Virus record (IMG/VR): IMGVR_UViG_3300020044_007581
Span: 1 to 26,049 of that record
DNA: 26,049 nt
Origin: a virus
Lineage: Duplodnaviria > Caudoviricetes
Direction: 5' to 3' (one strand)
The notes below the pieces were generated by a model. That model was given only the letters and a program-made list of their open reading frames with translations. It did no database searches and had not been told where the DNA came from. The stretch's first letter is position 1, and each line of letters opens with the position of its first letter. A program made the position numbers and the translations under genes. Shown in pieces: positions 6,325-26,049 of the stretch.

Positions 6325-7007
6325 TCCCGAGCGCCAAGCCAGCGCGTGATGCGCAAGACTGCATCAACGAATGGCGGCGCATGGGCTATAAGGTGGCCGT
6401 GTGGCGCGATGCCGACGCGCAGCCGGTAGACGCTGACTTCGCAATTTACGCGCCTTATCCGGGCTACGCTCAAGCGGTTAATGCCCTTGCTCAAACCGTT
6501 CTTGCGATGGACCCCGGATGCGAATGGGTCGTAACTGGCGGAGACGACGTTTTCCCGGACAAGTTGAAGCACCCGGACCAGATCGCGCGCGAATGCTCGC
6601 GCCGGTTTGGGAAGGGAGACATACTTGACCACGGGGACGCGGAAAGCCTGTTTGGCACCTACGGCGTCATGCAGCCGATTGGCGACGCCTGGGGCGGAAT
6701 CGAGCGTATCTGTGGTAGCCCTTGGATGGGACGCGAGTGGTGCCTAAAGGCCAATAAAGGTGCTGGGCCGCTGCATCCCGACTACTTCCACATGCACGTA
6801 GACCAGCATTTACAAGAGGCCGCAAAGGCTCAAAAGTGCCTGTGGCAGCGCAAAGACATCAGCCACGAGCATCGACACTGGGCACGCGAGAAAAAGCCAA
6901 TGCCGCCGTACTTGGCGCAGGTCAACACGCAACGGCACTGGGACGAAAGCCTCGCGCTGTTCAATCGGCATCGCGCCAGTGGATTTGCTGAAAGTTACCC
7001 GGTATGA
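6306..7007 (+). CDS. Putative GT-A fold glycosyltransferase
   Basis: Has N-terminal YVIPS, GYAQAVNAL, WVVTGGDDVFPD (DD motif), YFHMHVDQHL and HEHRHW. Overlaps the upstream GT gene. Confidence 0.7.
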   Translation: MAVWYVIPSAKPARDAQDCINEWRRMGYKVAVWRDADAQPVDADFAIYAPYPGYAQAVNALAQTVLAMDPGCEWVVTGGDDVFPDKLKHPDQIARECSRRFGKGDILDHGDAESLFGTYGVMQPIGDAWGGIERICGSPWMGREWCLKANKGAGPLHPDYFHMHVDQHLQEAAKAQKCLWQRKDISHEHRHWAREKKPMPPYLAQVNTQRHWDESLALFNRHRASGFAESYPV

Positions 7008-7555
7008 ACCGACTCACTAGCCTTTCGCTTATCCCAAGCGGCCTTCCTGGCAGCCGACCTCCTCTCGGTTGAAACCGGACGCTGATTGGCTTGCTGTTCT
7101 TTTTGAGTCGCCCACCGAATGTTTCCAGGCGCATACGGCCCGTTGTTGTCAATCCGGTCAAGCGTCTTCCCTACGGGTTTCGGGCCTACATCGGACAGAA
7201 ACTTATTGAAATCGTTTTTCCATTCATCGCAAACGGTGATACCCCGTGCGCCGTAAAACTCAAAGCGGTCGGAGTTCGGGTTATAACATCGCTGCTTCAT
7301 AGCATTCCACAGGCCATACATTTGGGTTTTCGATTTACCGTGAATCGTTTCCTGCTTAATCGCGGTTTCGCGTCGAAGGCACCCGCAACTTTTCGTACAT
7401 CCACGGCGAAGTTCGGCGGCGGCGGCGAATACAGGCTTTACTCCACAGTCGCAAGCGCACTCCCAAATCACGCTTGTCCGCCGGCCTCGCCTCTGACTGA
7501 CGCCCAATACCGTTAATCGTCCAAATTTAAGCCCGGCAAGTTCAATTCGTCTCAT
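6995..7555 (-). CDS. HNH homing endonuclease-like protein (free-standing)
   Basis: Has KFGRLTVL, WECACDCG, TKSCGC, W.AMKQRCYNP....YGARGITVCDEW, and TLDRIDNNGPY.PGNIRWAT..EQ..N. It is antisense to the operon. Confidence 0.9.
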   Translation of the reverse strand: MRRIELAGLKFGRLTVLGVSQRRGRRTSVIWECACDCGVKPVFAAAAELRRGCTKSCGCLRRETAIKQETIHGKSKTQMYGLWNAMKQRCYNPNSDRFEFYGARGITVCDEWKNDFNKFLSDVGPKPVGKTLDRIDNNGPYAPGNIRWATQKEQQANQRPVSTERRSAARKAAWDKRKASESVHTG

Positions 7556-7570
7556 GTCTAATTATACAAC
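7556..7570 (-). promoter_or_regulatory. Probable -10 box for a leaderless HNH transcript
   Basis: Minus strand reads gttgTATAATtagacATG: a perfect TATAAT (7561..7566) 5 nt before the ATG, with no SD. No clear -35 element. Confidence 0.5.
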
Positions 7571-7575
7571 GTAAC

Positions 7576-8370
7576 ATGCGGAAAACCTACATAACTTTTG
7601 GCGGAGCGGCCTATGATGAGATCACGGCGGTAGTCATGCGTGACGCGCTTCGGCTGGGCGTAGATGAACTCCTGATCTATGACGACAAATGGTTGACAGA
7701 GCAACCGTTTTTCTCAACGCCGGAGTTCCAGTATCTATTTACGCATCGCGGCGTAGGTAACCCTAATGGGAGGCGTGGTTTTGGATGGTTTTCGTGGAAG
7801 CCATTTTGTATACAGAATGCGCTTTCCAGGGTGTCAGATGGCGATATTGTGATGTTTGTAGACGCCGACACGTACCCCATTGCCGACCTGACCGTCCTGT
7901 ACGAGGAGTGCTCCCGCATCGGCGGCATCATGGCCTTCGCCGCCACCGCTGGCCGTTTGCCATTCAAGAACCGCGAATGGAACAAGCGGGATTGCATGAT
8001 TCAGATGGGCATGGATACACCAGAGTACTTGGAAGCGCCCACCGCTGTTGCTCGGTTCATGCTGTTTGAAAAGGGTAAACCGTTGGTAGACACATTCCTG
8101 GCTGAATGGCAGTATTACTGCCTCGATCCGGTTTGCCAGACCTTCGAGCCGTCCATGCTGGCGCCGGAGCATCCCGGATTCCGCGAGCACCGCACCGAGC
8201 AGGCCATCTACACCAACCTCTGCCACAAGTACGGCCTGAAGCTGTACCGCGAAGCGTGCGCGTTCGGGAACGAGCACCAGCAAGACTGGGAACTCTACCC
8301 GCAGCTGTTCATCCAACAAGACCCAGCCCGCCCGAAGTCGTTGCAAGGGAGCCGATACCGGAATGTTTAG
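7576..8370 (+). CDS. Putative nucleotide-diphospho-sugar transferase (GT-A-like)
   Basis: Has RGFGWFSWKPFCI..AL, DGDIVMFVDAD (DxD), WNKRD, and FREHRTEQAI motifs. Family assignment is uncertain. Confidence 0.65.
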   Translation: MRKTYITFGGAAYDEITAVVMRDALRLGVDELLIYDDKWLTEQPFFSTPEFQYLFTHRGVGNPNGRRGFGWFSWKPFCIQNALSRVSDGDIVMFVDADTYPIADLTVLYEECSRIGGIMAFAATAGRLPFKNREWNKRDCMIQMGMDTPEYLEAPTAVARFMLFEKGKPLVDTFLAEWQYYCLDPVCQTFEPSMLAPEHPGFREHRTEQAIYTNLCHKYGLKLYREACAFGNEHQQDWELYPQLFIQQDPARPKSLQGSRYRNV

Positions 8371-8950
8371 CCAGAATGACGAGGAGTGGTACATCCTCAA
8401 ATGGACGCCCGAGCATGGTCGCGTGCTGGACATCGGTGCATGGTGGCCGACGAACCTCTCCAACTCCCGCGCGTTGATTGAAAAAGGCTGGGACGCTGTG
8501 CTGGTTGAGCCATCGCCGGGACCGATGCGGGTTTTGCTTGGCGAGTACGGCCACAACGACAAAATCACGCTGCTCCAGGCCGCCGTCACCGCCCACGGCA
8601 AGCGCATCACCATGCAGGTGACCGACTACCCGGTGTCCACCTCGGATCACAAAGTTTACTCGCTCTGGCAGACTGACCCGCTGACGCAGTACCTCGGGCC
8701 CTTGGTGGTCCCGTCGATGACCCTTGCCGCAATTTTCGAGGAGTTCGGGCGCTTCGACTTTATTGATATTGACGCCGAAGGCCAATCCGTCGAACTCGCG
8801 ACCCAGCTCCTCGAACAGCCCGACGAAATGCTTCCGCAGTGCTTTTGCGTTGAGCACGACGGTTACGCTCCACAGATAGAATCCGCCGCCCGCCGTCGCG
8901 GCTACGTCAATTTTCACGTGACCGGGGAGAACATCGTTGCGGCTCGTTAA
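8363..8950 (+). CDS. FkbM-family SAM-dependent methyltransferase
   Basis: Has SQNDEE, VLDIGA, SNSRAL...GW.AVLVEP, FDFIDIDAEG, and CVEH. Confidence 0.9.
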   Translation: MFSQNDEEWYILKWTPEHGRVLDIGAWWPTNLSNSRALIEKGWDAVLVEPSPGPMRVLLGEYGHNDKITLLQAAVTAHGKRITMQVTDYPVSTSDHKVYSLWQTDPLTQYLGPLVVPSMTLAAIFEEFGRFDFIDIDAEGQSVELATQLLEQPDEMLPQCFCVEHDGYAPQIESAARRRGYVNFHVTGENIVAAR

Positions 8951-9788
8951 CATCCAGCCCGTCCGTAATGAAGCATGGTGCCTGGGCCTCACAGCCCGCG
9001 CGCTGCTTCAATGGTGCGATGATGCCGTGTTCCTCCTCCACGCTTGCACGGACGCCTCTGGGTCAATCCTAGAGGCCGTAGCGGCTGAATATCCGGGGCG
9101 CGTGCACGTCATCCACGAAGCCGAGACGATCTGGCGCGAGATGCACCATCGGCAACGGCTGCTGGAGTACGCGCGATGCCTCGACGCCACGCACATCGCC
9201 GTGGTGGACGCTGACGAGATTATCGCGGGCGACACGCTGCCCGCCATGCGCGACCATGTGGCGCACCTGGCACCCAAGCAGTTCGCCGCCATCAAATTCA
9301 GAAACATCATCGACGGGCTAGACCAGTACCGCGCTGAGCGTGGCCCGTGGGGCACCGACGCGGGAACCATCGTGGCCTTCGGCGATCATGGCCGCCTCTG
9401 CTGGGAGGCCCGCAACGGCTACGACCACCACCAGCGCAGTCCGTATGGCGCAGCGCAGGCCAGTTATATCAACGGCGGCGGACTACTCCATCTTCAATTT
9501 GCCAGCCGTCGCCGCCTACTCGCAAAGCACGCGCTGTACAAGGCATCAGAGCGGGTGAAGTACCCGAACAAATCCATTCGCGACATCGACGCGCTTTACA
9601 ATATGGCGCCGTCGCTGGCCGGAATTACTAGACAGCCGACGCCCGCCGAATGGTGGGCGCCGTATGCCGACCTTATGCCCCACTGCGACATCGACGCGGA
9701 ACCGTGGCAGGAACAGGCGACGCGGGAACTGGTGGCGCAATACGGGCCGTCGCACTTTGGCGGACTTGACCTCTTTGGAGTGGCATGA
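8937..9788 (+). CDS. GT2-like glycosyltransferase
   Basis: Has PVRNEAWCL, W.CD.....ACTDAS, THIAVVDADE (DxD), and LLHLQF. TTG start with GGGGAG upstream. Confidence 0.8.
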   Translation: MRLVNIQPVRNEAWCLGLTARALLQWCDDAVFLLHACTDASGSILEAVAAEYPGRVHVIHEAETIWREMHHRQRLLEYARCLDATHIAVVDADEIIAGDTLPAMRDHVAHLAPKQFAAIKFRNIIDGLDQYRAERGPWGTDAGTIVAFGDHGRLCWEARNGYDHHQRSPYGAAQASYINGGGLLHLQFASRRRLLAKHALYKASERVKYPNKSIRDIDALYNMAPSLAGITRQPTPAEWWAPYADLMPHCDIDAEPWQEQATRELVAQYGPSHFGGLDLFGVA

Positions 9789-12176: not shown

Positions 12177-12681
12177 AGTCCAAGGGCTCAAAGCCGTTCA
12201 GACCAGCTTTTCCGAACTGTCGTCTATGCTGTTGGCTGATGGCCGCGTTGAGAAGTACCAGCGCGGCCTCGCCATCGTCAAGTACGGATTTGCGCAGGCA
12301 TCCATGATTCTTCGGGATGCGGCGCGCTCTGCGATTGGCGGAAAATCACGCCGCGTTACCGCCGCCACCTTTGCCTTTGCTGATCTCGACGCAGGCCGCA
12401 CGAAAGCGCAAAAACGCTCATCGCTTGTGGGCGTCAGAACCGGTGCCCCACCGCGCCTAGATCGCAGTATCTACCGCGTGTGGGGTGCCGGATCAACTCG
12501 GAAGAATGGCACCACGGCAACCAACGGGCTCGGCATTTCGCTGGGCCGCATTTTTGAATCCGGCACGCGCTACCACCGCGGCACGCGGTTCTTTTCCAGC
12601 GCCATCCGCAACACGAAATCCCGCGCAATCTCAACACTCGTAACCGCCTACAAGGACGCAATCAGACTATTCAATGGCTAG
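12127..12681 (+). CDS. Basic tail/neck protein, HK97 gp10-like
   Basis: Has VEVQGLK.V at the N-terminus and RIFESGTRYH.G.RFF..A near the C-terminus. Confidence 0.7.
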   Translation: MATPRNVITRAGRWRVEVQGLKAVQTSFSELSSMLLADGRVEKYQRGLAIVKYGFAQASMILRDAARSAIGGKSRRVTAATFAFADLDAGRTKAQKRSSLVGVRTGAPPRLDRSIYRVWGAGSTRKNGTTATNGLGISLGRIFESGTRYHRGTRFFSSAIRNTKSRAISTLVTAYKDAIRLFNG

Positions 12682-15127
12682 CCTAATCGTCAAAATCACC
12701 GGGGACGCAAGTGGGTTTAAGGGAGTCGCGGATTCGCTTACGCGCGACCTCAACTCCATTGCCTCGCGTGCGGATAAAGTCGGCGGCTCCATCAGTTCGC
12801 TGGGATCAACGCTATCGGTTGGCCTGAGCGCGCCACTGCTGGCCCTTGGTGGCGTTGCCGTCAAAGCCTCGGCTGACATGGACTCCTTGCGCCGTGCGCT
12901 TGTCACAACTACGGGCAGTGCGTCGGAAGCGTCGAAACAGTTTGCCCGCCTGGAGGAAATCGCCAAGCTACCGGCTATCGGCTTAGAGGAAGCCGTTCGC
13001 GGTTCAATCCGCCTGCAAAACTACGGACTCTCAGCAGAACTGGCGGAAAAGGCAATGCGTGGTTTTTCCAACGCCATCGGCTCGTCTGGCGGCTCTGCTG
13101 ACGATACGAACGAGGCGCTACGCCAACTCGGGCAGACCTTCGGCCGCCAGAAGGTCACTATGGATAATCTGCGGATTATCCTGGAGCGCGTCCCGCAAGC
13201 GGCCAAGATCATCCGCGAAGAGTTTGGCTCCGCCGCTCTTGCCGACCCCGCCACTGCCCTCGAAAAGCTGGGCGTCAACTCCGAGCAGTTTGTAACCGTT
13301 CTCATCAACCGCTTGAACGAAGCGCAGAAGGTTGCGCCGGGGCTCAAGACGGAAATCGAAAATTTAGGCCAGGAGTTCCAGAAGACCGCCGCCGCCGTTG
13401 GCGATCAACTTGCCCCCGCCATCAAGGACATGATTGGGTATATGTCTGATGGGCTGAAGACCGTGGCAGACTTTGCCAAAGGCTTCGCGGACATGCCGAA
13501 GCCGGTGCAGCAAATCGGGCTGGCCTTCGGCGCGTTTCTTGTCACTGCTCCGCTTGTTGTAACGGCTGTTGGTACCATCATCACTAACTTCGGCGTCATC
13601 GCCGGGGCGGCGGGCACTATCGGAACTGCCGTAGCTGGATTCGCCACCACCCTCGGAACGTATGGCGCGGCCACATCTGCGGCTGTTGGCCTGATGGCTG
13701 GCGCGTGGGTAGCAGGGGCCGCTGTTGCAGTGTACTCCGTCGGCACGCTTGTCAGTGCGTTTTACGAACTCTACGCGGCGCAATCCAAGCTGGACACGTC
13801 CACCAATAGCCTGGCGTTTTCGATTGAAAAGCTATTGGACCGCGTGCGCAAGCAACACCCTGAAGTGGGCGCGCTTGAGTTGCAGTACCGGGCCGGAAAA
13901 TTGTCTGCTGAAGACTTTTCAGCCGAACTGCGGCGGCTTGCGTCTGGCATGGAATCCACGACCGTGCAGGGCACCGCATCAAAGCCGGTCATCAAAGGAT
14001 TGGGCGAGGAACACGGAAAAGCGGCCGAAGCCGTCACGAAGCACGCTAAGGCCATGGAGATGGCAAAGCTGCCTTCCGCCGATCTACTGGCGCTATTTGA
14101 GCGCATGAAGGACGCCGCGCAGCAAAAGCAAGAGCAAATCGGCAAACTGGCCGACATCATGGACCGCTACGGCGTGGTCACGGCTGACGCTGCATTGAAG
14201 GCTGCTCGGTCGCTCGATATCCTGTTTCAATCCTATCGCCAACTTTCCGACGCTCCAGACCTGGGCAACCTCAACCGCATTGATTTTTCAAAGCTGCCGA
14301 AAGTTAAAGACGTAATTAACAGTGGCATCGACCCCAAGCTGTCAGCGCCAATGCCGGGTGATTTTGACGCGTTCAAGCGGTCAGGCCGCAATATCGGACC
14401 GGAAGGCATGTTGACGCGCGAGCAAGCTGATGCAATCAAAGAACGCTACAAGCAGGTAGGCGCGGCTGGAAAAGCTGCCATGCGCCAGGTGTCCACCGTC
14501 GTCACCGACCTCTCCCGCGGCATCGCCGGCATCATCTTCGAGGGCGGCAAGATGGGAGATATGCTCCAGAAGGTGGCGAAGCAGGCAGGGCAGGCTATCA
14601 CGCGCGAACTGATTGAGGGCGCGTTGAAAAATCTGTCCACGCGGCTGCTGGAAGTCGGCGGCATCTTTGGCAAGGTGTTCGGCGGCGGCACGGGCGTAGT
14701 TAAGTCCGTATCGGGAGGAATGGGCGACCTGGGCGGGTCTTCGGCTGGCGGCATCGGCGGCGCTGCATCGGCGGCGGCGGGTGGCGTCACTGGCATGGTT
14801 TCCGCAGTGGCCGCGGTTGGCTCTCTTATTTCCGGTATCGTCGGCAATTTCCAGATGATGGGCATGAACAAAACGCTCGATCTCATCGAGCACGAAGTCC
14901 GCTACAGTCAAATCCACCTCCTCAACACCCTCAACAAAGCCAATGAATACTGGCCTTATATGAAGACTTGCTGGGAATCCCTAATCCGCATGGAGCAGCG
15001 CGGTATGGGTGTGGCTGGCGGCGGAGCCGTGCAGAACAACTTTGCCGGGGCCTACTTCCTGACCGATTCAGCCTTTGAAGACTTCATGCAAAAACAAGCC
15101 CGCTGGTTGAAAGCGCAAGGGCTTTAA
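12674..15127 (+). CDS. Tail tape measure protein
   Basis: 817 aa, Ala/Gly-rich and helical. Has L.VKITGDASGF, LS.GLSAPL..LG, the tape-measure domain (ALRQLGQ.....KV...NLR.I.ER.P) and hydrophobic central segments. Confidence 0.95.
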   Translation: MASLIVKITGDASGFKGVADSLTRDLNSIASRADKVGGSISSLGSTLSVGLSAPLLALGGVAVKASADMDSLRRALVTTTGSASEASKQFARLEEIAKLPAIGLEEAVRGSIRLQNYGLSAELAEKAMRGFSNAIGSSGGSADDTNEALRQLGQTFGRQKVTMDNLRIILERVPQAAKIIREEFGSAALADPATALEKLGVNSEQFVTVLINRLNEAQKVAPGLKTEIENLGQEFQKTAAAVGDQLAPAIKDMIGYMSDGLKTVADFAKGFADMPKPVQQIGLAFGAFLVTAPLVVTAVGTIITNFGVIAGAAGTIGTAVAGFATTLGTYGAATSAAVGLMAGAWVAGAAVAVYSVGTLVSAFYELYAAQSKLDTSTNSLAFSIEKLLDRVRKQHPEVGALELQYRAGKLSAEDFSAELRRLASGMESTTVQGTASKPVIKGLGEEHGKAAEAVTKHAKAMEMAKLPSADLLALFERMKDAAQQKQEQIGKLADIMDRYGVVTADAALKAARSLDILFQSYRQLSDAPDLGNLNRIDFSKLPKVKDVINSGIDPKLSAPMPGDFDAFKRSGRNIGPEGMLTREQADAIKERYKQVGAAGKAAMRQVSTVVTDLSRGIAGIIFEGGKMGDMLQKVAKQAGQAITRELIEGALKNLSTRLLEVGGIFGKVFGGGTGVVKSVSGGMGDLGGSSAGGIGGAASAAAGGVTGMVSAVAAVGSLISGIVGNFQMMGMNKTLDLIEHEVRYSQIHLLNTLNKANEYWPYMKTCWESLIRMEQRGMGVAGGGAVQNNFAGAYFLTDSAFEDFMQKQARWLKAQGL

Positions 15128-16758
15128 TGGGCGTTTCCGTCCTTATCCAATCGACCACACGCAACGCCTTGACGGGGCGTGACGGGGTGACGATTACCAA
15201 GGCACTCCGCACGATTCCCACGGCCACGATTCGCACCATCGACCCGGCCGGCTCATTCCTGCCGGGCGTAGGCAATCTGGTCGAAGTGCAGGACGACCTC
15301 AACGGGCCGACAGTGACGCTGTTCGGTGGATCGATCTCCGAAGTTGAGCGTATCCGGCGCCGCACCAGCATCGCCACGTTGGAAACCAACTGCGCGTGCG
15401 TGGGCAAGGCGGATCGACTGGAGCGGCGCCTGGCTGGCTACTACGAGTTCACCGGCAAAACGGCGGGCTACATCCTCGGGCAATTGGTGGCGAATAGCCT
15501 ATCTGGAGACATCTCCATCGCCTCTCCATCCGGCATCGCAACCGGGCCAACCATCGAGTCTCTAGTGTGGGACTACCCGACCGCCAAGGATGCGGCCGAT
15601 TCCGTCGTAAACCTGTCGCCAGGTTACGAGTACTACGTCAAACCTGACGGCACACTCTCATATTTCCAGACCTCCTCGAACGCCTGCCCGGTAAGCATTA
15701 CGACCGGCGCAAACGTCAACAAAATCACCACCCGCGAGACACGCGAGGACTTCTGTAATCGCGTCACGATCAAGGTAGCCAACGCGCTCCGCGATCCCGA
15801 CACCGAAAACTTCACCGGCGACGGGGCAACGCAGAGCTTTAACGTTGGGTACCCGTTGGCGCAGGCTCCTGAAATCTTCGTCGGCTCGCCAGCCGTGGCG
15901 CAGACGGTCGGAATCATCGGCGTGGATACTGGGAAAGATTGGTACTGGCAGGAAGGATCAACCGAGATCCGCCAGGAAGACACGGACACGCCGCTTGGCT
16001 CAGGCGTGGTCCTGATGGTTACCTACGTTGGCACCGAGTCTATTCTGGTTTCGGCCGCCAACACGACCAGCATCAGCGACCGCGCCACCGCAGAAAACAA
16101 CAGCGGTATCTATCACAAGCTGCTGACGCTGGATAGCAAGCTGACGCGCGCCAATGCACAAGCCGTCGCCGATGCCTACGTTGATCGCTATTCGTCCCTG
16201 TCCGTGGTGATGGTGTTTGAAACTGACACGCGGCTGGAACCGGAAGCAATCAACATCGAACCAGGCCAAACGCTCACCGTTTCGCTCACTGGCTACAATT
16301 GCGCTGGCACCTACTTAGTCCGCTCCGTCACGCTGCAACTGCGAATCAACGACGTCCACCAGGCGCGCTGGGTTGTGAAGGTTGAAGCCGTTAGCGGGCC
16401 TGTGCTGCGCAACTATGTTGACGTTTTCCGCGACACCCCAGGCGGCGGTGGAAACATCACCGGCAGCGGTTCTATCGCTTCATCGACTGGCGGCGCTGGT
16501 ACCTACGTCTACGAGCCCGCAAAGCTGACGGCAAACACAACGATCACCTCTCCAATCCCAGCGACCAGCGGCGCAACGATGGTTGTGTTTATCAAGCAGG
16601 GCGCTGGTCCATACACCATCAGCTTTGACGCCACGCAGTTTAGCCAAATCGTCAACACCGCAATACCGGCAGTTGAAAATATGGAAATAGCGTTTCCGTT
16701 TGTCGGTCGTGGCGATGGCTTATGGTGGCCGATGTCGTTTGCACGCGAGATGTCCTAA
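15127..16758 (+). CDS. Minor tail / tail tip hub-like protein
   Basis: 543 aa, TAATG-coupled to the tape measure gene. Has LFGG.I..V, YYVKPDG.L.YF, NRVTI, and IEPGQ.L.V........YLVRSV, typical of Tal/hub proteins. Confidence 0.7.
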   Translation: MGVSVLIQSTTRNALTGRDGVTITKALRTIPTATIRTIDPAGSFLPGVGNLVEVQDDLNGPTVTLFGGSISEVERIRRRTSIATLETNCACVGKADRLERRLAGYYEFTGKTAGYILGQLVANSLSGDISIASPSGIATGPTIESLVWDYPTAKDAADSVVNLSPGYEYYVKPDGTLSYFQTSSNACPVSITTGANVNKITTRETREDFCNRVTIKVANALRDPDTENFTGDGATQSFNVGYPLAQAPEIFVGSPAVAQTVGIIGVDTGKDWYWQEGSTEIRQEDTDTPLGSGVVLMVTYVGTESILVSAANTTSISDRATAENNSGIYHKLLTLDSKLTRANAQAVADAYVDRYSSLSVVMVFETDTRLEPEAINIEPGQTLTVSLTGYNCAGTYLVRSVTLQLRINDVHQARWVVKVEAVSGPVLRNYVDVFRDTPGGGGNITGSGSIASSTGGAGTYVYEPAKLTANTTITSPIPATSGATMVVFIKQGAGPYTISFDATQFSQIVNTAIPAVENMEIAFPFVGRGDGLWWPMSFAREMS

Positions 16759-19700
16759 TGAATAAACTCCTCATACTTTTCGTCCTGGCGGCCGTGGCGG
16801 CGTTTCCGCAAGCGCAGACGCCTCTCACTATCACGCAGTCAGCCGGCAGCGCTACGGGCGAATTGCGGATGCAAGAGCGCCGCACAAACGGCACGAACTA
16901 CGTGGGCATCAAAGCGCCGCAATCTGTAGCGGCAAACACTGTGTGGACGCTTCCCGGTGCGGACGGCACTGACAACCAATGCCTGAAGACCGATGGCGCT
17001 GGTCAGTGGTCATGGGAGTCTTGCACACCAGAGCGGCTTGTATCCGATTACAACTGGACACAGACGATTGGCGCGCGAAGTGGGTCTAGTGCTATCACGC
17101 TGACGTTTTCTGGCACGTCCTGCCCTGCATCCGGCTCAGACACCATTTTCGTTTACCGCGTCTACGAGTCCTCCACCCCGACGACCTACGAACTTGCCAC
17201 ATCTGACGGCAGTGGCACCTGCACGCGCGGCGGTTCTGGAACGATTGTCGCCACTGGCGTGACAGGCACGTATACCAACGCCATCGCTACGTCTGCATCG
17301 GCTGGCTTTCAGGAAGCGATTCTCAGTGTGGCGGATGGGCTGCATGTACGGGCGCGAGCGGCCATTGGATCGTACAGCATTTACTCTCCGATTTACACGG
17401 AGGACCGTGCGGTGTTGATCGAGTGTGAATCCTTGGGCGCTGGGCTGATCCCGCGCGTCAATAATCTCAAGGTGATTCACACGGCAGCGCCTACCGGCAT
17501 TCGCGTGAAGAATTGCCTGTTCACCAATGCCTACGCCACGACGGGCAACACAGCCATCTATGCTGACAACCCAGACGGCAGCAACTACGGAGGGCTGATC
17601 GAAGGCAACTGGTTTTCCTCGTTCGACAAATCCATCCACGCGGCAACGATTAGCGGGTGGGTGATCTCAAAAAACCACTTCCTGAACTTGACCTCTGCAA
17701 CCAGCGCGATCCACGTCGAAAACTTGACCAACGGCGACCAGGGAGTTGGACTAATCCACGGCAATATCTTCACTTGCGGCGCAACTTGCACGTATGGTTT
17801 GTTATGGAACGGACCCGGAGCGCTGCAACTCAAGCACAACAACTTCAACGGCTACACCACGCAGGTGCATTTACAGCCGAAGTACGGCACCGCCAGCAGT
17901 TCCGGCTCTACTGTCACCTGGCAGAGCGGGAACAAGTTCCGCGCCATTCTCGCTGGCCAAACTATCTACCTTGGCAGCACAGCGGCCACAATCGCATCAG
18001 TCGATAGCGATACGCAGATCACCACGTCATCGCCGATTGGGACGATTTCGACCACTGACTATTACGTAAACATCACCTCACAGCTTCAGATTAGTTCCAA
18101 CAACTTCGACAGTGGTGCAAACACGACCAAAGGCATCCGCTGGGAGGGGCCGGTACAATTCCAAAACGGACAGATTGAGCACAACTTTTTCTCCAATTGG
18201 AGCGGCGTTGCCAATCTCGAAGCCATCAGCATCGCCTCCAGCGGCGCAAACTTCCTGTCCATTCGCGGGAATAACATTCAGTCTCCGCAGGCCACGACGG
18301 GCACGTATGGCATTCGCTTGTCTGGTGGCTCAACGGTCAGCGTCACGGACAACCAGGTTATCGGCAGCAAGACCGCCATCGCCATCGAATCCGGCGCGTC
18401 GGCAGTCACGCTAACTGGCAACACGTTCCGCTACAACGACACAGCGCAGGTTACATCAGCCGTAAGCGATACAGTTTTGCAAGATCAAATCACAGTCGCC
18501 TACGCAGACCTATCTGGCCTGACCGTTGCCAACTCCTCGCGCGTCTATTGCAGCGATTGCAAGCAAAGCACCACCGCTTGCGCTGGAAGTGGCTCAGGCG
18601 CGGTCGCAACGAGAATCAATAGCACGTGGCAGTGTCAGGACCAGGCGAGCGGCTACCAGCCTTGGACGGTCAGTGGAAGCGATGTATACCGCAGCGCTGG
18701 GAACGTGGCTATTGGATCATCTCCCAACACGTCTACGCTGTTAGTTAAAGGCGCATCCGGCGCGTCTGGCATTTTGGAATTGAAGCACGGTACGGCTTCC
18801 TCGTCGCTGCAACTGTACGCGGAAAGCTCGTTTTCAGTGTTGGGCACCTATACCTCATCTCCGCTCATTTTCGCGTCTGATTCGGCTGGGCGATGGCGAC
18901 TCAATGCCAGCGGGATGCTGACGCCGGAAACAACGGATACCTACGACATTGGCAACCTGACATCGCCGCTTCGCGTTCGTGGCATCTACGGGAAGATCGT
19001 CGACACGGCTCTCGCTGGTGGTACTGGCGATTATCTCCAGACGCGCAAAATCCAACTCTTCGATAACACCGGCTCATCCACGGGGGCCTCCTACTGGGAT
19101 CTGAACGTCGTGATGAGCGGTGTTGGCGCTGGCCAAAACTCGTATTTTTACTTGCGCGACAACGGAGGAAACACCGTTTGGCGCGCGGACAAGATTGCAT
19201 CCGGTTCGCCAGTTGCAACGACGACAATCTATACCGACTTGCTGCCAGATTCAACGGCCAACGTCCGCGATCTCGGCAAAATTACGCAGCGCTGGGACGA
19301 AATAAACGGGGCCTCCATGGATCTCAGCGGCGCGGCCAACATCACCGGCAACCTTTCGGCGGCGGTCATCAACGCAACCGGGAGCCCAGCGTATCGGGTG
19401 AGCGGCACGACCGTTATAGACGCCTCCCGCAACCTGTCAAACATCGGCACGGGCGGCTTCTCCGGGTTAATCACTGCGTCCGCTGGTGTCGCGTTCGGCG
19501 CTTCCTCTACGTTTGCCGCCGATGCGACTTATGACTTCGGCACGTCGTCAAACAAGCTGCGCCGCTTATACGCAACCGGATGGACAATTTACGGCTCGGC
19601 CTTTGCTTCGTCTGGTTCGTCAATCACAATCCAAAGCGGCGCAACATTTACCGATGGGCGCACGTGCTCGTCTGGTGACGTGTGGACGGCTGACGGTTCC

Positions 19701-20258
19701 GGCAACCTTGCGTGCGCCGCTCCCGCTGCGTCATCGCTTCCAGTGGCCGACACGACAAACGTTGTCAAAGGCTCTGCCGACGCTACCAAGCTACTACGGT
19801 TTGAGGTGGACGGGTTCACCACAGGCACCACCCGCACGCTGACACCGCAGAACGCATCTTATACGCTTGCCGGAACGGACATTGCGCAGACATTCACGCA
19901 AACGCAAACATTCAACGGCTCCGCGCTTGTGCTGAATAGCACTATCACCGGCGACCTCATTCCGACCACATCAGCGGTGTATGTGATCGGCTCGTCCTCT
20001 TTCCTTTGGAACAACATCCACGCGGACACTGTGACCGTATACACAAACCTGATCCCCGACGCCAGCGCATCGGCCAATCTAGGCGGCAGCACGAAGCGAT
20101 GGACGAAAACCTGGACGGCCGATCTGGATATCACGGGAACAATCACCCCGCCAAGTGGCACCGCATTTAGCGGAACCAAAACCGTGCGCGCATCTGGCGG
20201 AGCCTCGGATTGCACGCTTACATTTTCCGCTGGCATCATGACTGGCGGCACCTGCTAA
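16758..20258 (+). CDS. Tail fibre/tailspike-like protein with beta-helix region and N-terminal signal peptide
   Basis: Start moved to ATG 16758 (TAATG coupling), giving 1166 aa that begin MNKLLILFVLAAVAAFPQAQ. Has parallel beta-helix repeats (IEGNWF, ISKNHF, IHGNIF, ISSNNF, IRGNNI, VTDNQV, LTGNTF) and five P.....Y/xDxG....R/W fibre repeats. Ser/Thr-rich. Confidence 0.75.
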   Translation: MNKLLILFVLAAVAAFPQAQTPLTITQSAGSATGELRMQERRTNGTNYVGIKAPQSVAANTVWTLPGADGTDNQCLKTDGAGQWSWESCTPERLVSDYNWTQTIGARSGSSAITLTFSGTSCPASGSDTIFVYRVYESSTPTTYELATSDGSGTCTRGGSGTIVATGVTGTYTNAIATSASAGFQEAILSVADGLHVRARAAIGSYSIYSPIYTEDRAVLIECESLGAGLIPRVNNLKVIHTAAPTGIRVKNCLFTNAYATTGNTAIYADNPDGSNYGGLIEGNWFSSFDKSIHAATISGWVISKNHFLNLTSATSAIHVENLTNGDQGVGLIHGNIFTCGATCTYGLLWNGPGALQLKHNNFNGYTTQVHLQPKYGTASSSGSTVTWQSGNKFRAILAGQTIYLGSTAATIASVDSDTQITTSSPIGTISTTDYYVNITSQLQISSNNFDSGANTTKGIRWEGPVQFQNGQIEHNFFSNWSGVANLEAISIASSGANFLSIRGNNIQSPQATTGTYGIRLSGGSTVSVTDNQVIGSKTAIAIESGASAVTLTGNTFRYNDTAQVTSAVSDTVLQDQITVAYADLSGLTVANSSRVYCSDCKQSTTACAGSGSGAVATRINSTWQCQDQASGYQPWTVSGSDVYRSAGNVAIGSSPNTSTLLVKGASGASGILELKHGTASSSLQLYAESSFSVLGTYTSSPLIFASDSAGRWRLNASGMLTPETTDTYDIGNLTSPLRVRGIYGKIVDTALAGGTGDYLQTRKIQLFDNTGSSTGASYWDLNVVMSGVGAGQNSYFYLRDNGGNTVWRADKIASGSPVATTTIYTDLLPDSTANVRDLGKITQRWDEINGASMDLSGAANITGNLSAAVINATGSPAYRVSGTTVIDASRNLSNIGTGGFSGLITASAGVAFGASSTFAADATYDFGTSSNKLRRLYATGWTIYGSAFASSGSSITIQSGATFTDGRTCSSGDVWTADGSGNLACAAPAASSLPVADTTNVVKGSADATKLLRFEVDGFTTGTTRTLTPQNASYTLAGTDIAQTFTQTQTFNGSALVLNSTITGDLIPTTSAVYVIGSSSFLWNNIHADTVTVYTNLIPDASASANLGGSTKRWTKTWTADLDITGTITPPSGTAFSGTKTVRASGGASDCTLTFSAGIMTGGTC

Positions 20259-20326
20259 ACCTCCCCGCGTGCCCTCTCCCGCGCGGGCGCTTCCGCGAGT
20301 GTGCGAAAACACTCGCTCACGACTTT

Positions 20327-20602
20327 ATGCGCACCATCACACTCATCGCAAGCCTGGGCCTGCTTGCGGCGGCCGAACAGCCGAAACCGAAGCCCGAACT
20401 GTCCACCGCCGCGCGGATCGCGCTCGGCACCATAGTCGGCGAGTCCAAAAAACTTGCCGACCAGCAAAAAGACCTGGCCGCTCAATACGAGGCGGTCAAA
20501 TCCGAAGAATGCCAGCGGGTTTTCGGATCGCAGAAATGCGACATCAACGGAGCCGGCCAACTGGTGCTTCTCGCACCGCCGCCGGCAGAAGTGAAGAAAT
20601 GA
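20327..20602 (+). CDS. Small coiled-coil protein with signal peptide
   Basis: MRTITLIASLGLLAAAEQPKP..., start moved to ATG 20327. Contains two Cys. Sits in the position of a fibre chaperone. Confidence 0.65.
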   Translation: MRTITLIASLGLLAAAEQPKPKPELSTAARIALGTIVGESKKLADQQKDLAAQYEAVKSEECQRVFGSQKCDINGAGQLVLLAPPPAEVKK

Positions 20603-20958
20603 TCTCGCCCAAGCTGATCCCAGCCATTTTATTGGCAATTGCGGCGCTGCGGGGCGAGTCGATCTGCGGCATTGACAAGCAAAACGCAACCGCCAATATC
20701 GACCTCGTGCAAGTGTCCTGCGTGGATTACGACCGGCTGCGCGCGCAAGCTCCGCAATTCCCCTGGCCCACCGGGCGTGTCACGCAGGTGCTCGTCCACA
20801 TCCGCGAGGGCGACGCCGTGCGCGTGACCGTCGATGGCGTGGCAAAATTCGCCGATCTCATCCGTGACGCCTGGGGGCGGCTGATTGCGCTGGTTCAATT
20901 CGACGGCGTGGATCATGCGGCGGTGGCCGTCAAGGTGTATCGGGCGGTGGAGGAGTGA
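20599..20958 (+). CDS. Hypothetical protein with signal peptide
   Basis: MISPKLIPAILLAIAALRGESICG..., ATGA-coupled to the upstream gene. Contains two Cys. Confidence 0.65.
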   Translation: MISPKLIPAILLAIAALRGESICGIDKQNATANIDLVQVSCVDYDRLRAQAPQFPWPTGRVTQVLVHIREGDAVRVTVDGVAKFADLIRDAWGRLIALVQFDGVDHAAVAVKVYRAVEE

Positions 20959-21119
20959 AGCTCCGCACCGCTGCCGTAGATGCGGCCGTGGATGGAAAGC
21001 GCGTCGGTGGTCCGTGGGCTATCCCGCTGGACAAAGACGCGCTAAAGGAAATCAAGGCGCTTGAACTGGAGTTCGGGCGTGTGGAATTCGAGCAGATCAA
21101 GGACAAAAACCATGAGTAA
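20955..21119 (+). CDS. Small hypothetical protein (54 aa, not in ORF track)
   Basis: GTGA overlap with the upstream stop. Reads MKLRTAAVDAAVDGKRVGGPWAIPLDKDALKEIKALELEFGRVEFEQIKDKNHE* and fills the gap exactly. Confidence 0.6.
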   Translation: MKLRTAAVDAAVDGKRVGGPWAIPLDKDALKEIKALELEFGRVEFEQIKDKNHE

Positions 21120-21531
21120 CCATCTCGGGCCTGACGCCCAAACCGCCAAGCTAAACAGCGGCGGCGAATCCATCGACGCGCTGAACGCCGCCCGGGCGGA
21201 CGAAGCCAAGGACGCCGCCACGAAGTACCGCGAGCAGGCAACGGCCAAGTTGCAACGGCTCGGTGTGGCAACGCTGTACAGCGACATCCCGCCGACAAAC
21301 GAAGTCCTCCGCGCCGCGCTGGCGAAGATCAAGGCGGCCGGTGCCATTGACCCCATCGTGGAGCGCGTCACCGTTGCCAACCAGGGCGGGAACTGGACGT
21401 TCGACCTGTATCACTTCCCCAAGTTCCTCTCTCCGGGCATCCGCTACAGCGCGGACGAGACGCTGTTGGCGCTGTCGCCCGATAGCGTCATCGCGGCGCT
21501 GCGTGACGGTGGCTTCCTCGGGGGCCGGTAA
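21112..21531 (+). CDS. Hypothetical protein
   Basis: MSNHLGPDAQ..., with AAGGA RBS upstream and TAATG coupling to the next gene. No motif recognised. Confidence 0.65.
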   Translation: MSNHLGPDAQTAKLNSGGESIDALNAARADEAKDAATKYREQATAKLQRLGVATLYSDIPPTNEVLRAALAKIKAAGAIDPIVERVTVANQGGNWTFDLYHFPKFLSPGIRYSADETLLALSPDSVIAALRDGGFLGGR

Positions 21532-21728
21532 TGCGAACCGCATGGAAAGCCATTCTTGCCGCCGCGCTCGGCGGGGCCGCTACGGCGGCTTCTGACGCGC
21601 TGATGTTCGACGGCACAACTCACCCCAAGCAACTTGCCGCTAAGGCCGCAATTGGGGCCGCTGTGGCCGTGGCGGGGTATCTGAAGCAATCGCCCATTAA
21701 ACCGGAAGCACCACCGCCCGAGAAGTGA
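21531..21728 (+). CDS. Putative holin
   Basis: 65 aa with two Ala/Gly-rich hydrophobic segments and a charged, Pro-rich C-terminus (YLKQSP...). Confidence 0.55.
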   Translation: MRTAWKAILAAALGGAATAASDALMFDGTTHPKQLAAKAAIGAAVAVAGYLKQSPIKPEAPPPEK

Positions 21729-22036
21729 AAACTCCAATGCCGGAGAATGAATTGGAACAACTCGAACGTATTGCCGATACCCTCGAAGATGTCCGCTCAG
21801 ACGTAAGTGGCCTCACTACGTCGCAAGCTGTCCAGACTGAACAGCTCAAAAGCATCGCCGAGCATTTAGCGCGCCTCAACGGGCGCGTTGGCAAGTCCGA
21901 AGACCGCCTTTCCTCACTCGAAAACGACCGGGCCGAGCAGCGCGGGGCGTGGAAGTTTATCGCGCTCATCTCGTCGATTCCGGCCTCTATCATCGGGGCC
22001 GGGGCGATGTGGCTGGCGAATCACGGGGGCAAATGA
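21725..22036 (+). CDS. Coiled-coil protein with C-terminal TM helix (XhlA/holin-associated type)
   Basis: Has HLARLNGRV...E.RL..LE and C-terminal WKFIALISSIPASIIGAGAMWL. Confidence 0.6.
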   Translation: MKTPMPENELEQLERIADTLEDVRSDVSGLTTSQAVQTEQLKSIAEHLARLNGRVGKSEDRLSSLENDRAEQRGAWKFIALISSIPASIIGAGAMWLANHGGK

Positions 22037-22899
22037 CTCAGAAATGGTCGATCACGCGAGACTCTGACATGGTGGCAACTCTTCGCCTGGAGAAGTTCGC
22101 CAGCGTCAATGATGAGCGGTGGGTGCTCCTGCAATCTGACGAGCACGCGGATAATCAGCACAGCGATCTCGACCTCATCCGGCGCCACATGGCCGAAGCC
22201 GTTGAGCGCGGCGCGCCGGTCCTCAAGTTCGGCGACACCTACTGCGCAATGCAAGGGCGCTGGGACAAGCGAGCGGACCCGCGGCAATTGCGGGAGGAGT
22301 TGCGCGGAGCGAACTACCTGGACGAGCTGGTCCGCTACCATGAGCGGCTGTACTCGCCCTACGCCGCGCAGATCGCGGCCATCGGCTACGGCAACCACGA
22401 AACGTCGATTCAGACTCACCACCAAACCGACCTCGTAGAGCGCCTCGTGGACCGTCTACGGCAAGCCGGAAGCCCGGTTCAAAAGCTTGGCTACACCGGG
22501 TTCGTCCGCATCGCGGCGCAGTATGGCAACACCGTGCGGACTTTCCTACTCCACTTCCACCACGGCAGCGGCGGCGGCGGCGAAGTCACGCGCGGCTTCA
22601 TCGACTGGAACCGAACGCGCGGGATGTACTCGGCGGATGTCTACTATGCTGGGCACATCCACCGCCGCAACATGGACGAAAACGTAATCGTCGGCGTGAG
22701 CGCAAAGGGCACCTGCGAACGGCGCCATCAGCTTATGCTTCGCGGCTCCTGCTACAAAGACGAAGACGGCGACGGCGGCTGGCACGTTGAGCGCGGCCGC
22801 GCCGCGCGGCCTAAGGGCGGCTGGTGGTTGCGAATCACGCCCGAGTATCGGCACGGGCAGAACTCCGCCGACTTCCGGCTGGAGGCTGTTGCCGCATGA
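22033..22899 (+). CDS. Calcineurin-like metallophosphoesterase
   Basis: Has SDEH, FGD, GNHE, HHG and AGHIH motifs in order. Start moved to ATG 22033 (ATGA coupling). Confidence 0.85.
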   Translation: MTQKWSITRDSDMVATLRLEKFASVNDERWVLLQSDEHADNQHSDLDLIRRHMAEAVERGAPVLKFGDTYCAMQGRWDKRADPRQLREELRGANYLDELVRYHERLYSPYAAQIAAIGYGNHETSIQTHHQTDLVERLVDRLRQAGSPVQKLGYTGFVRIAAQYGNTVRTFLLHFHHGSGGGGEVTRGFIDWNRTRGMYSADVYYAGHIHRRNMDENVIVGVSAKGTCERRHQLMLRGSCYKDEDGDGGWHVERGRAARPKGGWWLRITPEYRHGQNSADFRLEAVAA

Positions 22900-23213
22900 C
22901 CCGCGAACGCTGGGCGCTGATGTTGGGCGAGTGGTGTGTCATCCTCGGAATCACCACGCCGCCAACGCTGGTATTCCTGCCCGCGCGCCGGATGCCGCAG
23001 GGCGTAGCGATGCTTACCGAGTGGTACTTGGCGCTCGAAAACGGCTGGCAAATCAAAATCAACACGGGCGACCTGGACGACCCGGAGGCGCTGTTGGTCC
23101 ATGAACTCCTCCACGTCCGCAGCGGCTGCACGGACCAGGCGCACGAGCCATGGATTAGGGACGTTGCGGCGGCGTTGGTGGCGCTGAAGCGGCGCTCTTT
23201 GCCCGCCGCGTAG
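22896..23213 (+). CDS. Small HExxH zinc metallopeptidase-like protein
   Basis: MTRERWALMLGEW..., with EALLVHELLHV and a downstream E (AHEPW). ATGA-coupled at 22896. Confidence 0.7.
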   Translation: MTRERWALMLGEWCVILGITTPPTLVFLPARRMPQGVAMLTEWYLALENGWQIKINTGDLDDPEALLVHELLHVRSGCTDQAHEPWIRDVAAALVALKRRSLPAA

Positions 23214-23817: not shown

Positions 23818-25680
23818 ATGACAATTACCAAGAAGATCGCACTACTTTTCCTTGGAGCCATGGGCCTCGCCTATGGCACCGACTGCACTATCTCCGACAC
23901 CGTGCGCACGCCGTTTGGCGGGTACTTCGCGGGCAAAATAACGGTGGTACTCAACTCCCCATCGCTGGCCCAACCCCTCTACAGTGGCAGCCAAACCCTC
24001 ACCGGCTGGCAGACCACCATTGACGTCCCCGCGTCGGCCAATGGCGCGGTTGCGGTGACGCTCGTTTGCACGGACTCCATCACTCCCAGCGGGACGAGCT
24101 ACGCGGCGCGCTACCAGCCGACGAGCGGCGCCGGGTGGGCGGAAACCTGGACGCCGGCAACGGGCACCACGACGATCCGCGCCATGCGCGCCACCACCGT
24201 CCCATCCCCGACCGTCACCTTCCAGCCGTCGCAGATCGCCCCTGGCAGCAGCGGCCAAGTGCTGACCACCTCGGGCGGGGCGGCAGTGTGGGCGGCTTCG
24301 TCAGGTGGCGTTACATCGCTGAACGGCACGGCCAACCAGATCACCGCCAGCGCGTCGACTGGCGCGGTCACGCTGTCGCTTCCCGCAACCATCACCGGGC
24401 TCACGTCGGTGACCTCGACGGGGTTTACCGGCGCCCTCACCGGCAACGCTTCGACAGCCACCGCGCTCGCCTCAACACTGACGACCGGCCAAATCCTTTT
24501 CGGCCAGGGCACAGGGGTTCCAACGTCAGAGAGTGATTTGTATTGGGATTCCGCAGCGAATGAGCTAGGTATCCGCCAAAGCACCCCGGTGGCGCCGCTG
24601 CACGTTGGCAACTCTACCACCAACGGTTCCACCGACGCGCAAATTCTGATTTCTCGCTTGGTCAACGATGCGTCAGGCACGGGCAACGGACATGCGTTCG
24701 CCGATTCATCCACCGTCAGCCGGTCTGGCACCATCGGATACAACTCGTTTGATGCCCGTTCGACGGTTTCCGGCTCCTCAAATTACGACCACTACGCGGC
24801 GTTCCAGGTGCAATCGAGCCACGCGACGGTCGGAACTACCACACATCTATACGGGTATTTTTTCGGGCCAACTGTTAGCGCTGGTTCCGTCACAAATGTC
24901 TACGGAACCTATATTACGGGCGTGAACTCTGGGAGCCGGGCGGTCAATGTGTACGGCCATTACATCGCGGACCAGACGACCGGAACCACCTCAAACTGGG
25001 CTGTATATGCGGCGGGAACAACCAAGAGTTTCTTTGGCGGAGGCGTCACGCTTGGAGGAACGACGCAAACCACCAGTCTGCCGCTGGTGGACGGGTCGCA
25101 GACGTGGAACGCCGGTGGCGTGACATTTACCGGGCTCAAGGTCAATATCACTAACACGGCAAGCGCAGCCGCGTCGAAAGTCTTTGATTTTCAGGTTAAC
25201 TCTGTTTCCTACCTGTCCATGGCGCCATCTACCGGCCTTGTATCGGTCGCGGGCGGCTTGCCTGCTGGTGGAGACATAAGTGGCAATAACTGGCTAGGCG
25301 TCGGCAACGTCCGCGCAGGTGCGTCGCAATCCGTGTTTTTCACTGGCAGGACAATCATCAGCAGTCCAGCTAATGGAGATTTACTGTTATGGAACACTGG
25401 AGGAACTGACTTTGGGCTAATTAAACTTGGTGGTATCACCTCCAGTTTTCCGGCCCTGAAGCGCGCGGGAACGGCTTTACAAGTTCGCCTTGCCGATGAC
25501 TCCGCGTTTACCGAATTGTCCGCCGCCGCGTTCCAGTGGCAGACCGGCACGCGGCCAACGTGCAACAGCGGCAACCGGTTCAAGGTCTGGGCTGTCGCCG
25601 GCGGGGCGGGCGTACTCGATACGTTCGAGTTGTGCAGGAAGGACGCAGCCGATGCGTATGCCTGGGTGACGCTGTTCTAG
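23818..25680 (+). CDS. Second fibre/adhesin-like virion-type protein with N-terminal signal peptide
   Basis: Start moved to ATG 23818 (AAAGGG upstream), giving 620 aa that begin MTITKKIALLFLGAMGLAYG-TDC. Has fibre motifs GQVLTT.GG...W, GVTSLNG, FTGALTGNASTATALA, and LGI.QSTP.APLHV. Four Cys in two terminal pairs. Confidence 0.7.
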   Translation: MTITKKIALLFLGAMGLAYGTDCTISDTVRTPFGGYFAGKITVVLNSPSLAQPLYSGSQTLTGWQTTIDVPASANGAVAVTLVCTDSITPSGTSYAARYQPTSGAGWAETWTPATGTTTIRAMRATTVPSPTVTFQPSQIAPGSSGQVLTTSGGAAVWAASSGGVTSLNGTANQITASASTGAVTLSLPATITGLTSVTSTGFTGALTGNASTATALASTLTTGQILFGQGTGVPTSESDLYWDSAANELGIRQSTPVAPLHVGNSTTNGSTDAQILISRLVNDASGTGNGHAFADSSTVSRSGTIGYNSFDARSTVSGSSNYDHYAAFQVQSSHATVGTTTHLYGYFFGPTVSAGSVTNVYGTYITGVNSGSRAVNVYGHYIADQTTGTTSNWAVYAAGTTKSFFGGGVTLGGTTQTTSLPLVDGSQTWNAGGVTFTGLKVNITNTASAAASKVFDFQVNSVSYLSMAPSTGLVSVAGGLPAGGDISGNNWLGVGNVRAGASQSVFFTGRTIISSPANGDLLLWNTGGTDFGLIKLGGITSSFPALKRAGTALQVRLADDSAFTELSAAAFQWQTGTRPTCNSGNRFKVWAVAGGAGVLDTFELCRKDAADAYAWVTLF

Positions 25681-25689
25681 GGAGGCATC

Positions 25690-26049
25690 ATGATTCTCGC
25701 GCTCACTATCCTCCTCACCTGGGCAGACGCCGCCAACCCGCCCAACACCACGTATCACGTTTATCGCGCTGGCGGCGGCTGTGGCGACGGCGCGCCATTC
25801 GAGCGACTGACCACCGCACCGCAGCCCACCAAGAGCTACAAAGACACCCCGCCCTCTGGCACCTACTGTTATCAGGTGACGGCAATTGTGGACGGGGTGG
25901 AGTCGGACCCATCTCCAAAGATCAGGGTGCAAAAGCCCGTCCCGCCCAGTGCTCTCAAGATCGCTCCCGTGCGAAGGGCTGTTCCGCCATCGACACCAGC
26001 CGCGTTCTGGGTGAGTTGGTATCGCCCGCCGAGGGGATCGCCTACACCG
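25690..26049 (+). CDS. Fibronectin type III-like domain protein (open at window end)
   Basis: GGAGG RBS at 25681. Reads LLTW......TYHVYR......F..LT..P....SYKD.....TYCYQVTA...GVES.PS. No stop codon before the edge. Confidence 0.7.
   Translation, partial: MILALTILLTWADAANPPNTTYHVYRAGGGCGDGAPFERLTTAPQPTKSYKDTPPSGTYCYQVTAIVDGVESDPSPKIRVQKPVPPSALKIAPVRRAVPPSTPAAFWVSWYRPPRGSPTP

Follow-up and report, generated by a model that had tools for sequence, protein, structure and literature searches.

Tailed phages are taken to finish their assembly in the cytoplasm before lysis. In the systems represented by CBA120 TSP4 and by T4 gp34-gp37, the receptor-binding trimer, which is variable, is a separate protein that docks on a domain of another protein bound to the virion; all the parts are cytoplasmic. 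In filamentous phages, the receptor-binding protein pIII is Sec-exported and oxidised in the periplasm; it is membrane-anchored and is added during extrusion, without lysis, to a phage that is not tailed. The stretch considered here (the window) is the whole 26-kb virus record IMGVR_UViG_3300020044_007581 (Caudoviricetes; 26,049 nucleotides), which carries the late operon of a long-tailed phage. Its subject is a tail fibre whose gene follows that of the tail-tip hub, with a conserved signal-like start, cysteines gained and lost in pairs, and a candidate docking site in a C-terminal domain of the hub. The arrangement is like that of CBA120 and T4, from which it differs in that the docked part carries a predicted export signal; with pIII it would share Sec export and periplasmic oxidation of the receptor-binding protein, but not the membrane anchor, the addition during extrusion without lysis or the non-tailed particle. 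Full-text literature searches, which scarcely covered subscription papers, returned no account of tailed phages whose fibres are Sec-exported and then join the virion.

Fibre anatomy, start and cysteine pairing

The fibre gene (16758-20258, 1166 aa, beginning MNKLLILFVLAAVAAFPQAQ) lies directly after the tape measure and hub genes, which is the position of the siphovirus fibre/tailspike, and its ATG overlaps the hub stop codon (TAATG). In homologous loci the fibre start falls at -8 to +2 nt from the upstream stop, and this coupling is kept across different hub types. An in-frame ATG at 16722, 12 codons upstream, was ruled out as the start by stops in homologous loci; in particular, MNK is the conserved fibre start because L009, L013 and L025 have a stop three codons before it. 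The parts of the protein are the following:

16758..16808, + strand, predicted Sec/SPase I signal peptide (residues 1-17; cleavage before Q18 or Q20), from the sequence by a heuristic
16809..17033, + strand, mature N-terminal plug module (residues 18-92), conserved, with the pair Cys75/Cys89, from the modelled interface, the joint loss of the cysteines and a repeat common to leaderless cultured fibres
17325..18497, + strand, right-handed beta-helix (about residues 190-580), tailspike/depolymerase-like and variable among relatives (Pfam Beta_helix E=1.2e-6; AF2 pLDDT mostly 80-95)
18549..18635, + strand, four-Cys module (598/601 and 608/626), in which 608 and 626 vanish jointly while the CxxC remains
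20136..20258, + strand, conserved C-terminal beta tip with Cys1152/Cys1166, with shifted alternative Cys pairs in homologues

The repeats and the beta-helix body are those of a classical siphovirus tail fibre or tailspike, whereas the conserved signal-like start and the paired cysteines depart from the leaderless state and cytoplasmic folding of such fibres. The beta-helix has Foldseek matches to GH110, to the P22 tailspike and to phage pectate-lyase-like proteins, while a sequence search of the fibre against the PDB gave no significant match; the monomer model is of low confidence over most of residues 629-1113. The N-terminal module is conserved while the body is mosaic. No other large tail-tip gene and no leaderless fibre that could take its place appear among our own gene calls in the near-complete genomes G004 and G002.

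The search for fibre homologues gave 55 matches, of which three weak ones (E 8e-16 or worse, 5% coverage, a common short stretch only) were left out, and the set used comprises the query and 51 others. According to the heuristic, 48 of these 52 proteins (37 distinct sequences) have a signal-like start with the traits of Sec/SPase I substrates, namely a basic n-region, a hydrophobic h-region and a small-residue cleavage site; in all 37 distinct signals a small residue comes last and Gln follows it. Two of the four remaining proteins begin inside the signal and two lack the N-terminal module, and the starts of the latter two may be mis-called. An earlier note on this DNA had described the fibre as coupled to the hub, with a signal-like start and 16 cysteines, all of which holds, and the conservation that it proposed to look for in homologues is that found here by the heuristic.

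The cysteines are residues 75, 89, 122, 155, 223, 253, 340, 344, 598, 601, 608, 626, 970, 986, 1152 and 1166. The earlier note had set them against a capsid protein free of cysteine; the count of 0 in the capsid stands, but the contrast is weak, as the portal has 5, the hub 5 and the terminase 8. Mean cysteine density is modestly higher in the fibres than in the hubs (1.26% vs 0.93%), and richness was dropped as evidence because the two families differ so little in this respect; the evidence lies instead in the pairing. Among the fibre homologues the mature proteins have from 6 to 24 cysteines, and the number is even in 44 of 52 (p=4e-7, although such parity p-values overstate independence because the homologues are mosaic relatives). 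The excess of even counts is kept after thinning at 70% identity (34/38), 60% (25/27) and 50% (15/17). For the control residues W, H, M, F and E, even and odd counts are near 50:50, and in hub homologues the cysteine count is even in 21 of 37, the chance level.

In an alignment of 40 rows, the pairs 75/89, 340/344, 598/601 and 608/626 never occur singly and are lost as doubles; both C75 and C89 are present in 36 of the 40 fibres and neither in 4. The double losses of 75/89 and of 608/626 fall within an otherwise intact module. The columns of 970/986 are poorly aligned and the correlation of 122/155 is weaker. The gain and loss of fibre cysteines two at a time is supported by these sequences and fits disulfide bonds.

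Hub, candidate socket and socket-fibre gene coupling

The protein encoded immediately upstream of the fibre and its parts are:

15127..16758, + strand, leaderless tail-tip hub with a gp27/Tal fold (residues 1-425), a Gly-rich linker (426-457) and the C-terminal socket domain (AF2 mean pLDDT 81.7)
15790..16035, + strand, inserted beta domain of the hub (residues 222-303), like the N-terminal region of CBA120 TSP4 (VIA-align to 7rfv: Z 8.7, a middling value, rmsd 1.6, 64 residues aligned)
16498..16758, + strand, proposed socket domain of about 85 aa (hub residues 458-543), candidate binder of the mature fibre N-terminus, from the complex score and co-occurrence

The assignment of the hub is based on Foldseek matches to known hubs (E 1e-16 to 1e-7) and on VIA-align, in which the top six rows for the gp27-like fold have Z 22-24.6 and rmsd 2.8-4.3 over about 300 aligned residues, the phiCD508 needle chain reaching Z 24.6 with rmsd 2.9 and 299 aligned. 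The inserted domain is, from its modelled structure, a possible second attachment site. The C-terminal domain is separate and confidently modelled beyond the Gly-rich linker, and its designation as a socket is new to this analysis. Its Atlas feature score is 0.97 to clusters in which PF26209 (Phage_phiTE_241_C) occurs on 11-14% of members, with no local Pfam match; the searched text of the phiTE paper contains nothing on gp241 (PMC11972413). The best PDB match in a sequence search is not significant (E 0.11); for the socket as for the fibre N-terminal module, a similar fold may nevertheless exist among the solved structures. When 1.84 billion representatives (a library clustered at 50%) were searched with a profile, 106 matches came up, 94 of them with a long domain match; in these 94 the domain is C-terminal in 81 and in none does it lie within a signal-bearing protein. 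Some of the socket proteins are short stubs with an N-terminal segment weakly of the T7 gp17 type (Pfam E 0.004-0.006, below the cut-off).

The genes of the socket and of the fibre are coupled. A scan with the hub C-terminal domain found 57 loci, of which two end inside the hub, and in all 55 that are readable downstream a fibre with a signal comes next (with 26 distinct starts among them; one fibre is visible for 12 residues). In two of these 55 the upstream protein is not a hub: the socket ends a leaderless stub of 163 aa in podovirus-type phages with SU10-type adaptors, and the stub locus that is long enough to show it has the fibre and genes like P4 and P2, the small genes that follow the fibre in the window, downstream. 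From the side of the fibre, 64 loci were found and 24 examined: 16 have a socket ending the upstream gene, four have no upstream DNA and four match by internal repeats only. In five redundant loci among these 16, a 1247-aa gpJ-like tip protein ends in the socket directly before a signal-bearing fibre, as recognised with a widened profile built on a small set (iE 3e-13 to 2e-11). A motif scan for distant sockets gave 18 loci, and of the five examined three are chance matches, while the other two are genuine sockets, each with a signal-bearing fibre gene after it. The coupling of socket and fibre genes spans three tail types: siphoviruses with a Tal hub, siphoviruses with a gpJ-like tip and podovirus-type phages.

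The complex of three sockets with three fibre N-terminal modules (residues 18-92), for which the trimer state was assumed, was modelled with a score of 0.83 (runs 0.91, 0.83 and 0.32), and the best of three controls scored 0.00; of 157 solved complexes 116 attain the mark used for such scores, as do 2 of 215 mismatched pairs, counts that apply only roughly to a 3+3 job with alignments of our own. The partners have a pLDDT of at least 87. On the fibre, the modelled interface comprises residues 18-21, 24, 26-30, 32 and 42-46, and the best-placed contacts are those of residues 19-21, which are near-invariant and immediately follow the predicted site of cleavage. The model is thus support for, and not proof of, binding of the mature fibre N-terminus to the hub socket.

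Proposed assembly route and its alternatives

From these observations we infer that the fibre probably leaves the cytoplasm, loses its signal, becomes an oxidised trimer in the periplasm and, at lysis, binds to the sockets of the hub. According to this route, and by analogy with known siphovirus biology, the head, tube, tape measure and trimeric hub, none of which is signal-bearing, would be built in the cytoplasm, while the fibre would be translated with its Sec signal and cleaved before Gln. In the periplasm it would fold as a trimer, host oxidases would close the paired cysteines, and the products of two downstream genes, co-exported with it, may aid its folding or cap it, which is the weakest step. 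Once lysis breaches the inner membrane, the N-terminus of the freed fibre trimer would plug into three sockets of about 85 aa carried on the Gly-rich hub linker. The two downstream genes are:

20327..20602, + strand, P4, 91 aa, beginning MRTITLIASLGLLAAA, with a signal peptide, a likely coiled coil (read from the sequence) and one Cys pair
20599..20958, + strand, P2, 119 aa, beginning MISPKLIPAILLAIAALRG, with a signal peptide, a domain of about 100 aa and one Cys pair

The earlier note had given both ORFs signal-like starts and two cysteines each, as is borne out, and a signal-like start with exactly two cysteines is found in each distinct copy listed. P2 is 65-92% identical in 19 loci, has no family in Pfam or PHROG and has Atlas matches under 0.9 only; homologues occur in the podovirus-type phage L093, both for P2 (E=2e-6) and, via L065, for P4. 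By their gene neighbourhoods the two travel with the fibre, and from their sequences P4 is a candidate periplasmic fibre chaperone and P2 a candidate accessory or tip protein. That they are instead periplasmic lysis proteins, spanin-like or an exported endolysin of unrecognised type, is unlikely. Their genes overlap (ATGA) and lie between the fibre and the holin-like genes, P4 resembles a coiled coil with cysteines, and no endolysin is recognised in the window or in 47 scanned ORFs (27 of G004 and 20 of G002); in these ORFs and in 20955-23213 of the window no spanin is recognised either beside the holin-like and XhlA-like genes. Nevertheless, neither protein has the lipobox of an o-spanin, the hydrophobic stretch of P4 is short and cleavable-looking by eye, with an Ala-rich end, and P2 has insertions of about 10-40 aa between the signal and the first cysteine in L003 and L005. 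Moreover, L065 has P4 and P2 together with a separate M15 endolysin, and the pair accompanies the fibre into the podovirus-type phage.

Similarly unlikely is a fibre that is exported and disulfide-bonded and never joins the particle, being a free depolymerase at lysis or a host-surface factor, with the hub C-terminal domain as the receptor-binding tip. The beta-helix resembles both secreted glycosidases and tailspikes, and the parts seen of a study of the Bdellovibrio MAT proteins indicate that signal-bearing, phage-like trimeric fibres can act as cell-surface adhesins (PMC10769870). This is opposed by the translational coupling to the hub, by an N-terminal module that is conserved despite the mosaic body, by a socket that accompanies the fibre over three tail types and by the modelled interface between socket and plug. 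Enzyme activity is not essential under either reading, because a 549-aa form without the beta-helix occurs in some relatives, and a lysogen surface factor is less likely given that no integrase is recognised in the scanned ORFs of G004 and G002. The proposal of the earlier note, an exported and disulfide-bonded fibre that joins the particle, is favoured over its alternative of a free secreted enzyme by signal conservation, the Gln after the cleavage site, the paired loss of cysteines and the predicted docking on the hub.

An improbable alternative is that the hydrophobic start is uncleaved or unused, through an internal start or as a tether to the inner membrane, with assembly on the cytoplasmic side and oxidation of the cysteines delayed until lysis has occurred, a course that phage Milano may take. 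In fact, disulfide networks occur in tailed virions, as in Milano (in the text seen of PMC10811340), disulfides can arise spontaneously in oxygen (likewise in part of PMC13576161), and many fibre copies have before the first Gln a Pro, which is an unusual residue at -1. However, the 37 distinct signals all end in a small residue and Gln, Gly is a common alternative to the Pro, a second Ala/Ser-Gln site follows, and a membrane anchor would be expected to have a longer h-region; with an internal start further on, the interface would be lost, because the strictly conserved residues 18-21 form part of it in the model. Metal binding by the cysteines, which the CxxC at 598-601 with its two further cysteines would suit and for which a trimer could pool two cysteines per chain, is very improbable against cysteines that come and go in twos, each pair on its own, across many separate modules, a 608/626 pair that vanishes while the CxxC stays and shifted alternative pairs at the C-terminus.

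Several points weigh against export and docking at lysis. The signal calls come from our own heuristic of hydrophobicity, charge and cleavage site and not from SignalP, and 8 of the 52 fibre homologues have an odd number of cysteines. For the runs of the complex model the lower bound of agreement is 0% of contacts, so that they may share none, and one of them scored 0.32; the model says nothing on the need for cleavage because the signal was removed before folding. The 55 socket loci are redundant and come from the patterns of one clade, and gene linkage alone can suffice for adjacency. With the narrow profile the gpJ-like socket is not significant (hhalign E=0.17), L134, one of the four loci that match by internal repeats only, has a signal-bearing protein and an upstream ORF not scored as a socket, and the adjacency counts cover few socket proteins beyond those close to that of the hub. 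Finally, the clade has no cultured member and the case is wholly computational.

With somewhat less confidence than the export and docking of this one fibre, but still as the likelier reading, we propose a portable plug-socket cassette by which unrelated tailed phages would complete their virions outside the cytoplasm: oxidised fibres stockpiled in the periplasm would snap onto a widespread C-terminal socket only at lysis, and signal cleavage would create the plug. Intracellular particles could then not adsorb before their release, and co-infecting phages could swap fibres. A final assembly step that needs Sec export, periplasmic oxidation and lysis would, if true, alter the picture of cytoplasmic assembly. 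The 85-aa socket and the 75-aa plug are a small, testable pair that can be assayed without phage culture, and other phages can be searched for this route with the socket domain as the marker.

Setting of the locus and comparison with known systems

The late operon runs, from Pfam and PHROG matches, through portal, protease, HK97-type capsid, a glycosyltransferase/methyltransferase block, connectors, tube, tape measure, hub, fibre, two small genes, holin-like genes and a second fibre-like gene. Other features are:

12674..15127, + strand, tape measure protein (Pfam TMP_3 E=1.4e-19; PHROG tape measure matches)
23818..25680, + strand, second signal-bearing fibre-like protein, 620 aa, 4 Cys, from the sequence, downstream of the region covered by the earlier note
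25690..26049, + strand, signal-like beta-sandwich ORF with 2 Cys, cut by the contig end (weak Pfam RGI_lyase beta-sheet match, below the cut-off)

The second fibre has a signal and an even mature cysteine count in all seven parsed homologues; an eighth, L021, shows the signal, and L011 was mis-parsed. Its family has a conserved N-terminal domain and a variable tip and is followed by small signal-bearing ORFs (23818-26049 in the window), those of the type at 25690..26049 coming after the second fibre in several loci. After the holin genes, a metallophosphoesterase-like gene lies at 22033-22899 (PHROG 7339), of which relatives have a different 249-aa form, and a variable gene of 121-142 aa occupies the place of the M15 endolysin of L065.

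Glycosyltransferase-like genes and an FkbM methyltransferase lie between the capsid and connector genes (5548-9788) and are kept in L002 and L009; virion glycosylation is possible, and the block is presumably like that of mycobacteriophages. On the opposite strand within it, an HNH endonuclease (6995-7555, - strand; PHROG scan) is unaligned in G004. The first 2.3 kb, including the terminase (1-2332), run opposite to their orientation in G004, a close relative, and an inverted copy of the portal start (466 nt, 95%) flanks them; the arrangement is probably an assembly fold-back or chimera. In G002 (L034 4531-9357) the head module beside the same fibre cassette is a different one, and there are two genes like that of the tail tube.

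The closest cultured terminases are about 35% identical. Two GTDB scans, with the fibre N-terminus and the phosphoesterase as queries, returned no relative, and cluster look-ups gave no host names; an Acidobacteriota host, which the style of the signals brings to mind, is an assumption of ours and not a result. The M15 endolysin of the relative L065 indicates that the hosts possess peptidoglycan, and a periplasm is presumed.

Among cultured phages, the annotated tail fibres gp68 of Pelagibacter phage Mosig and QCW22873 of Synechococcus phage S-B05 have the same beta-repeat as the plug module (37-40% identity over about 85 aa), but they are leaderless, have no cysteine in the repeat and give no socket match in the fetched regions. 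The same fibre repeat is found near the start of an unrelated signal-bearing protein in L134 (4857-6782), without a socket upstream. In Cellulophaga phage phi18:3 (KC821620), gp085-gp087 are annotated as structural proteins detected by MS/MS and have signal-like starts, two of them with Ala-Gln at the likely cleavage site; the GenBank record does not mention export. The comparison is weakened, to the cost of the route proposed here, by their 0, 1 and 3 cysteines, the absence of a socket match and the lack of similarity to this fibre. If true, the route would account for signal-bearing virion proteins in records such as this one.

The phiCbK paper (PMC3556154) was dropped as a precedent, since in the text searched 'signal peptide' occurs only in a reference. 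Disulfides in tailed virions, including receptor-binding proteins, are described for Agrobacterium phage Milano and for the gp39 tube of a siphovirus; these bonds are largely inter-subunit, and the searched portions contain neither 'signal peptide' nor 'periplasm' (PMC10811340, PMC13576161). The MAT fibres of Bdellovibrio, as far as the consulted sections go, combine a signal peptide, a conserved N-terminal domain of about 130 aa after the signal and a mosaic phage-like trimer, with a disulfide in one tip (PMC10769870). They are likened to this fibre by description and differ from it in being chromosomal cell-surface adhesins, whereas the fibre described here is encoded in a phage tail operon.

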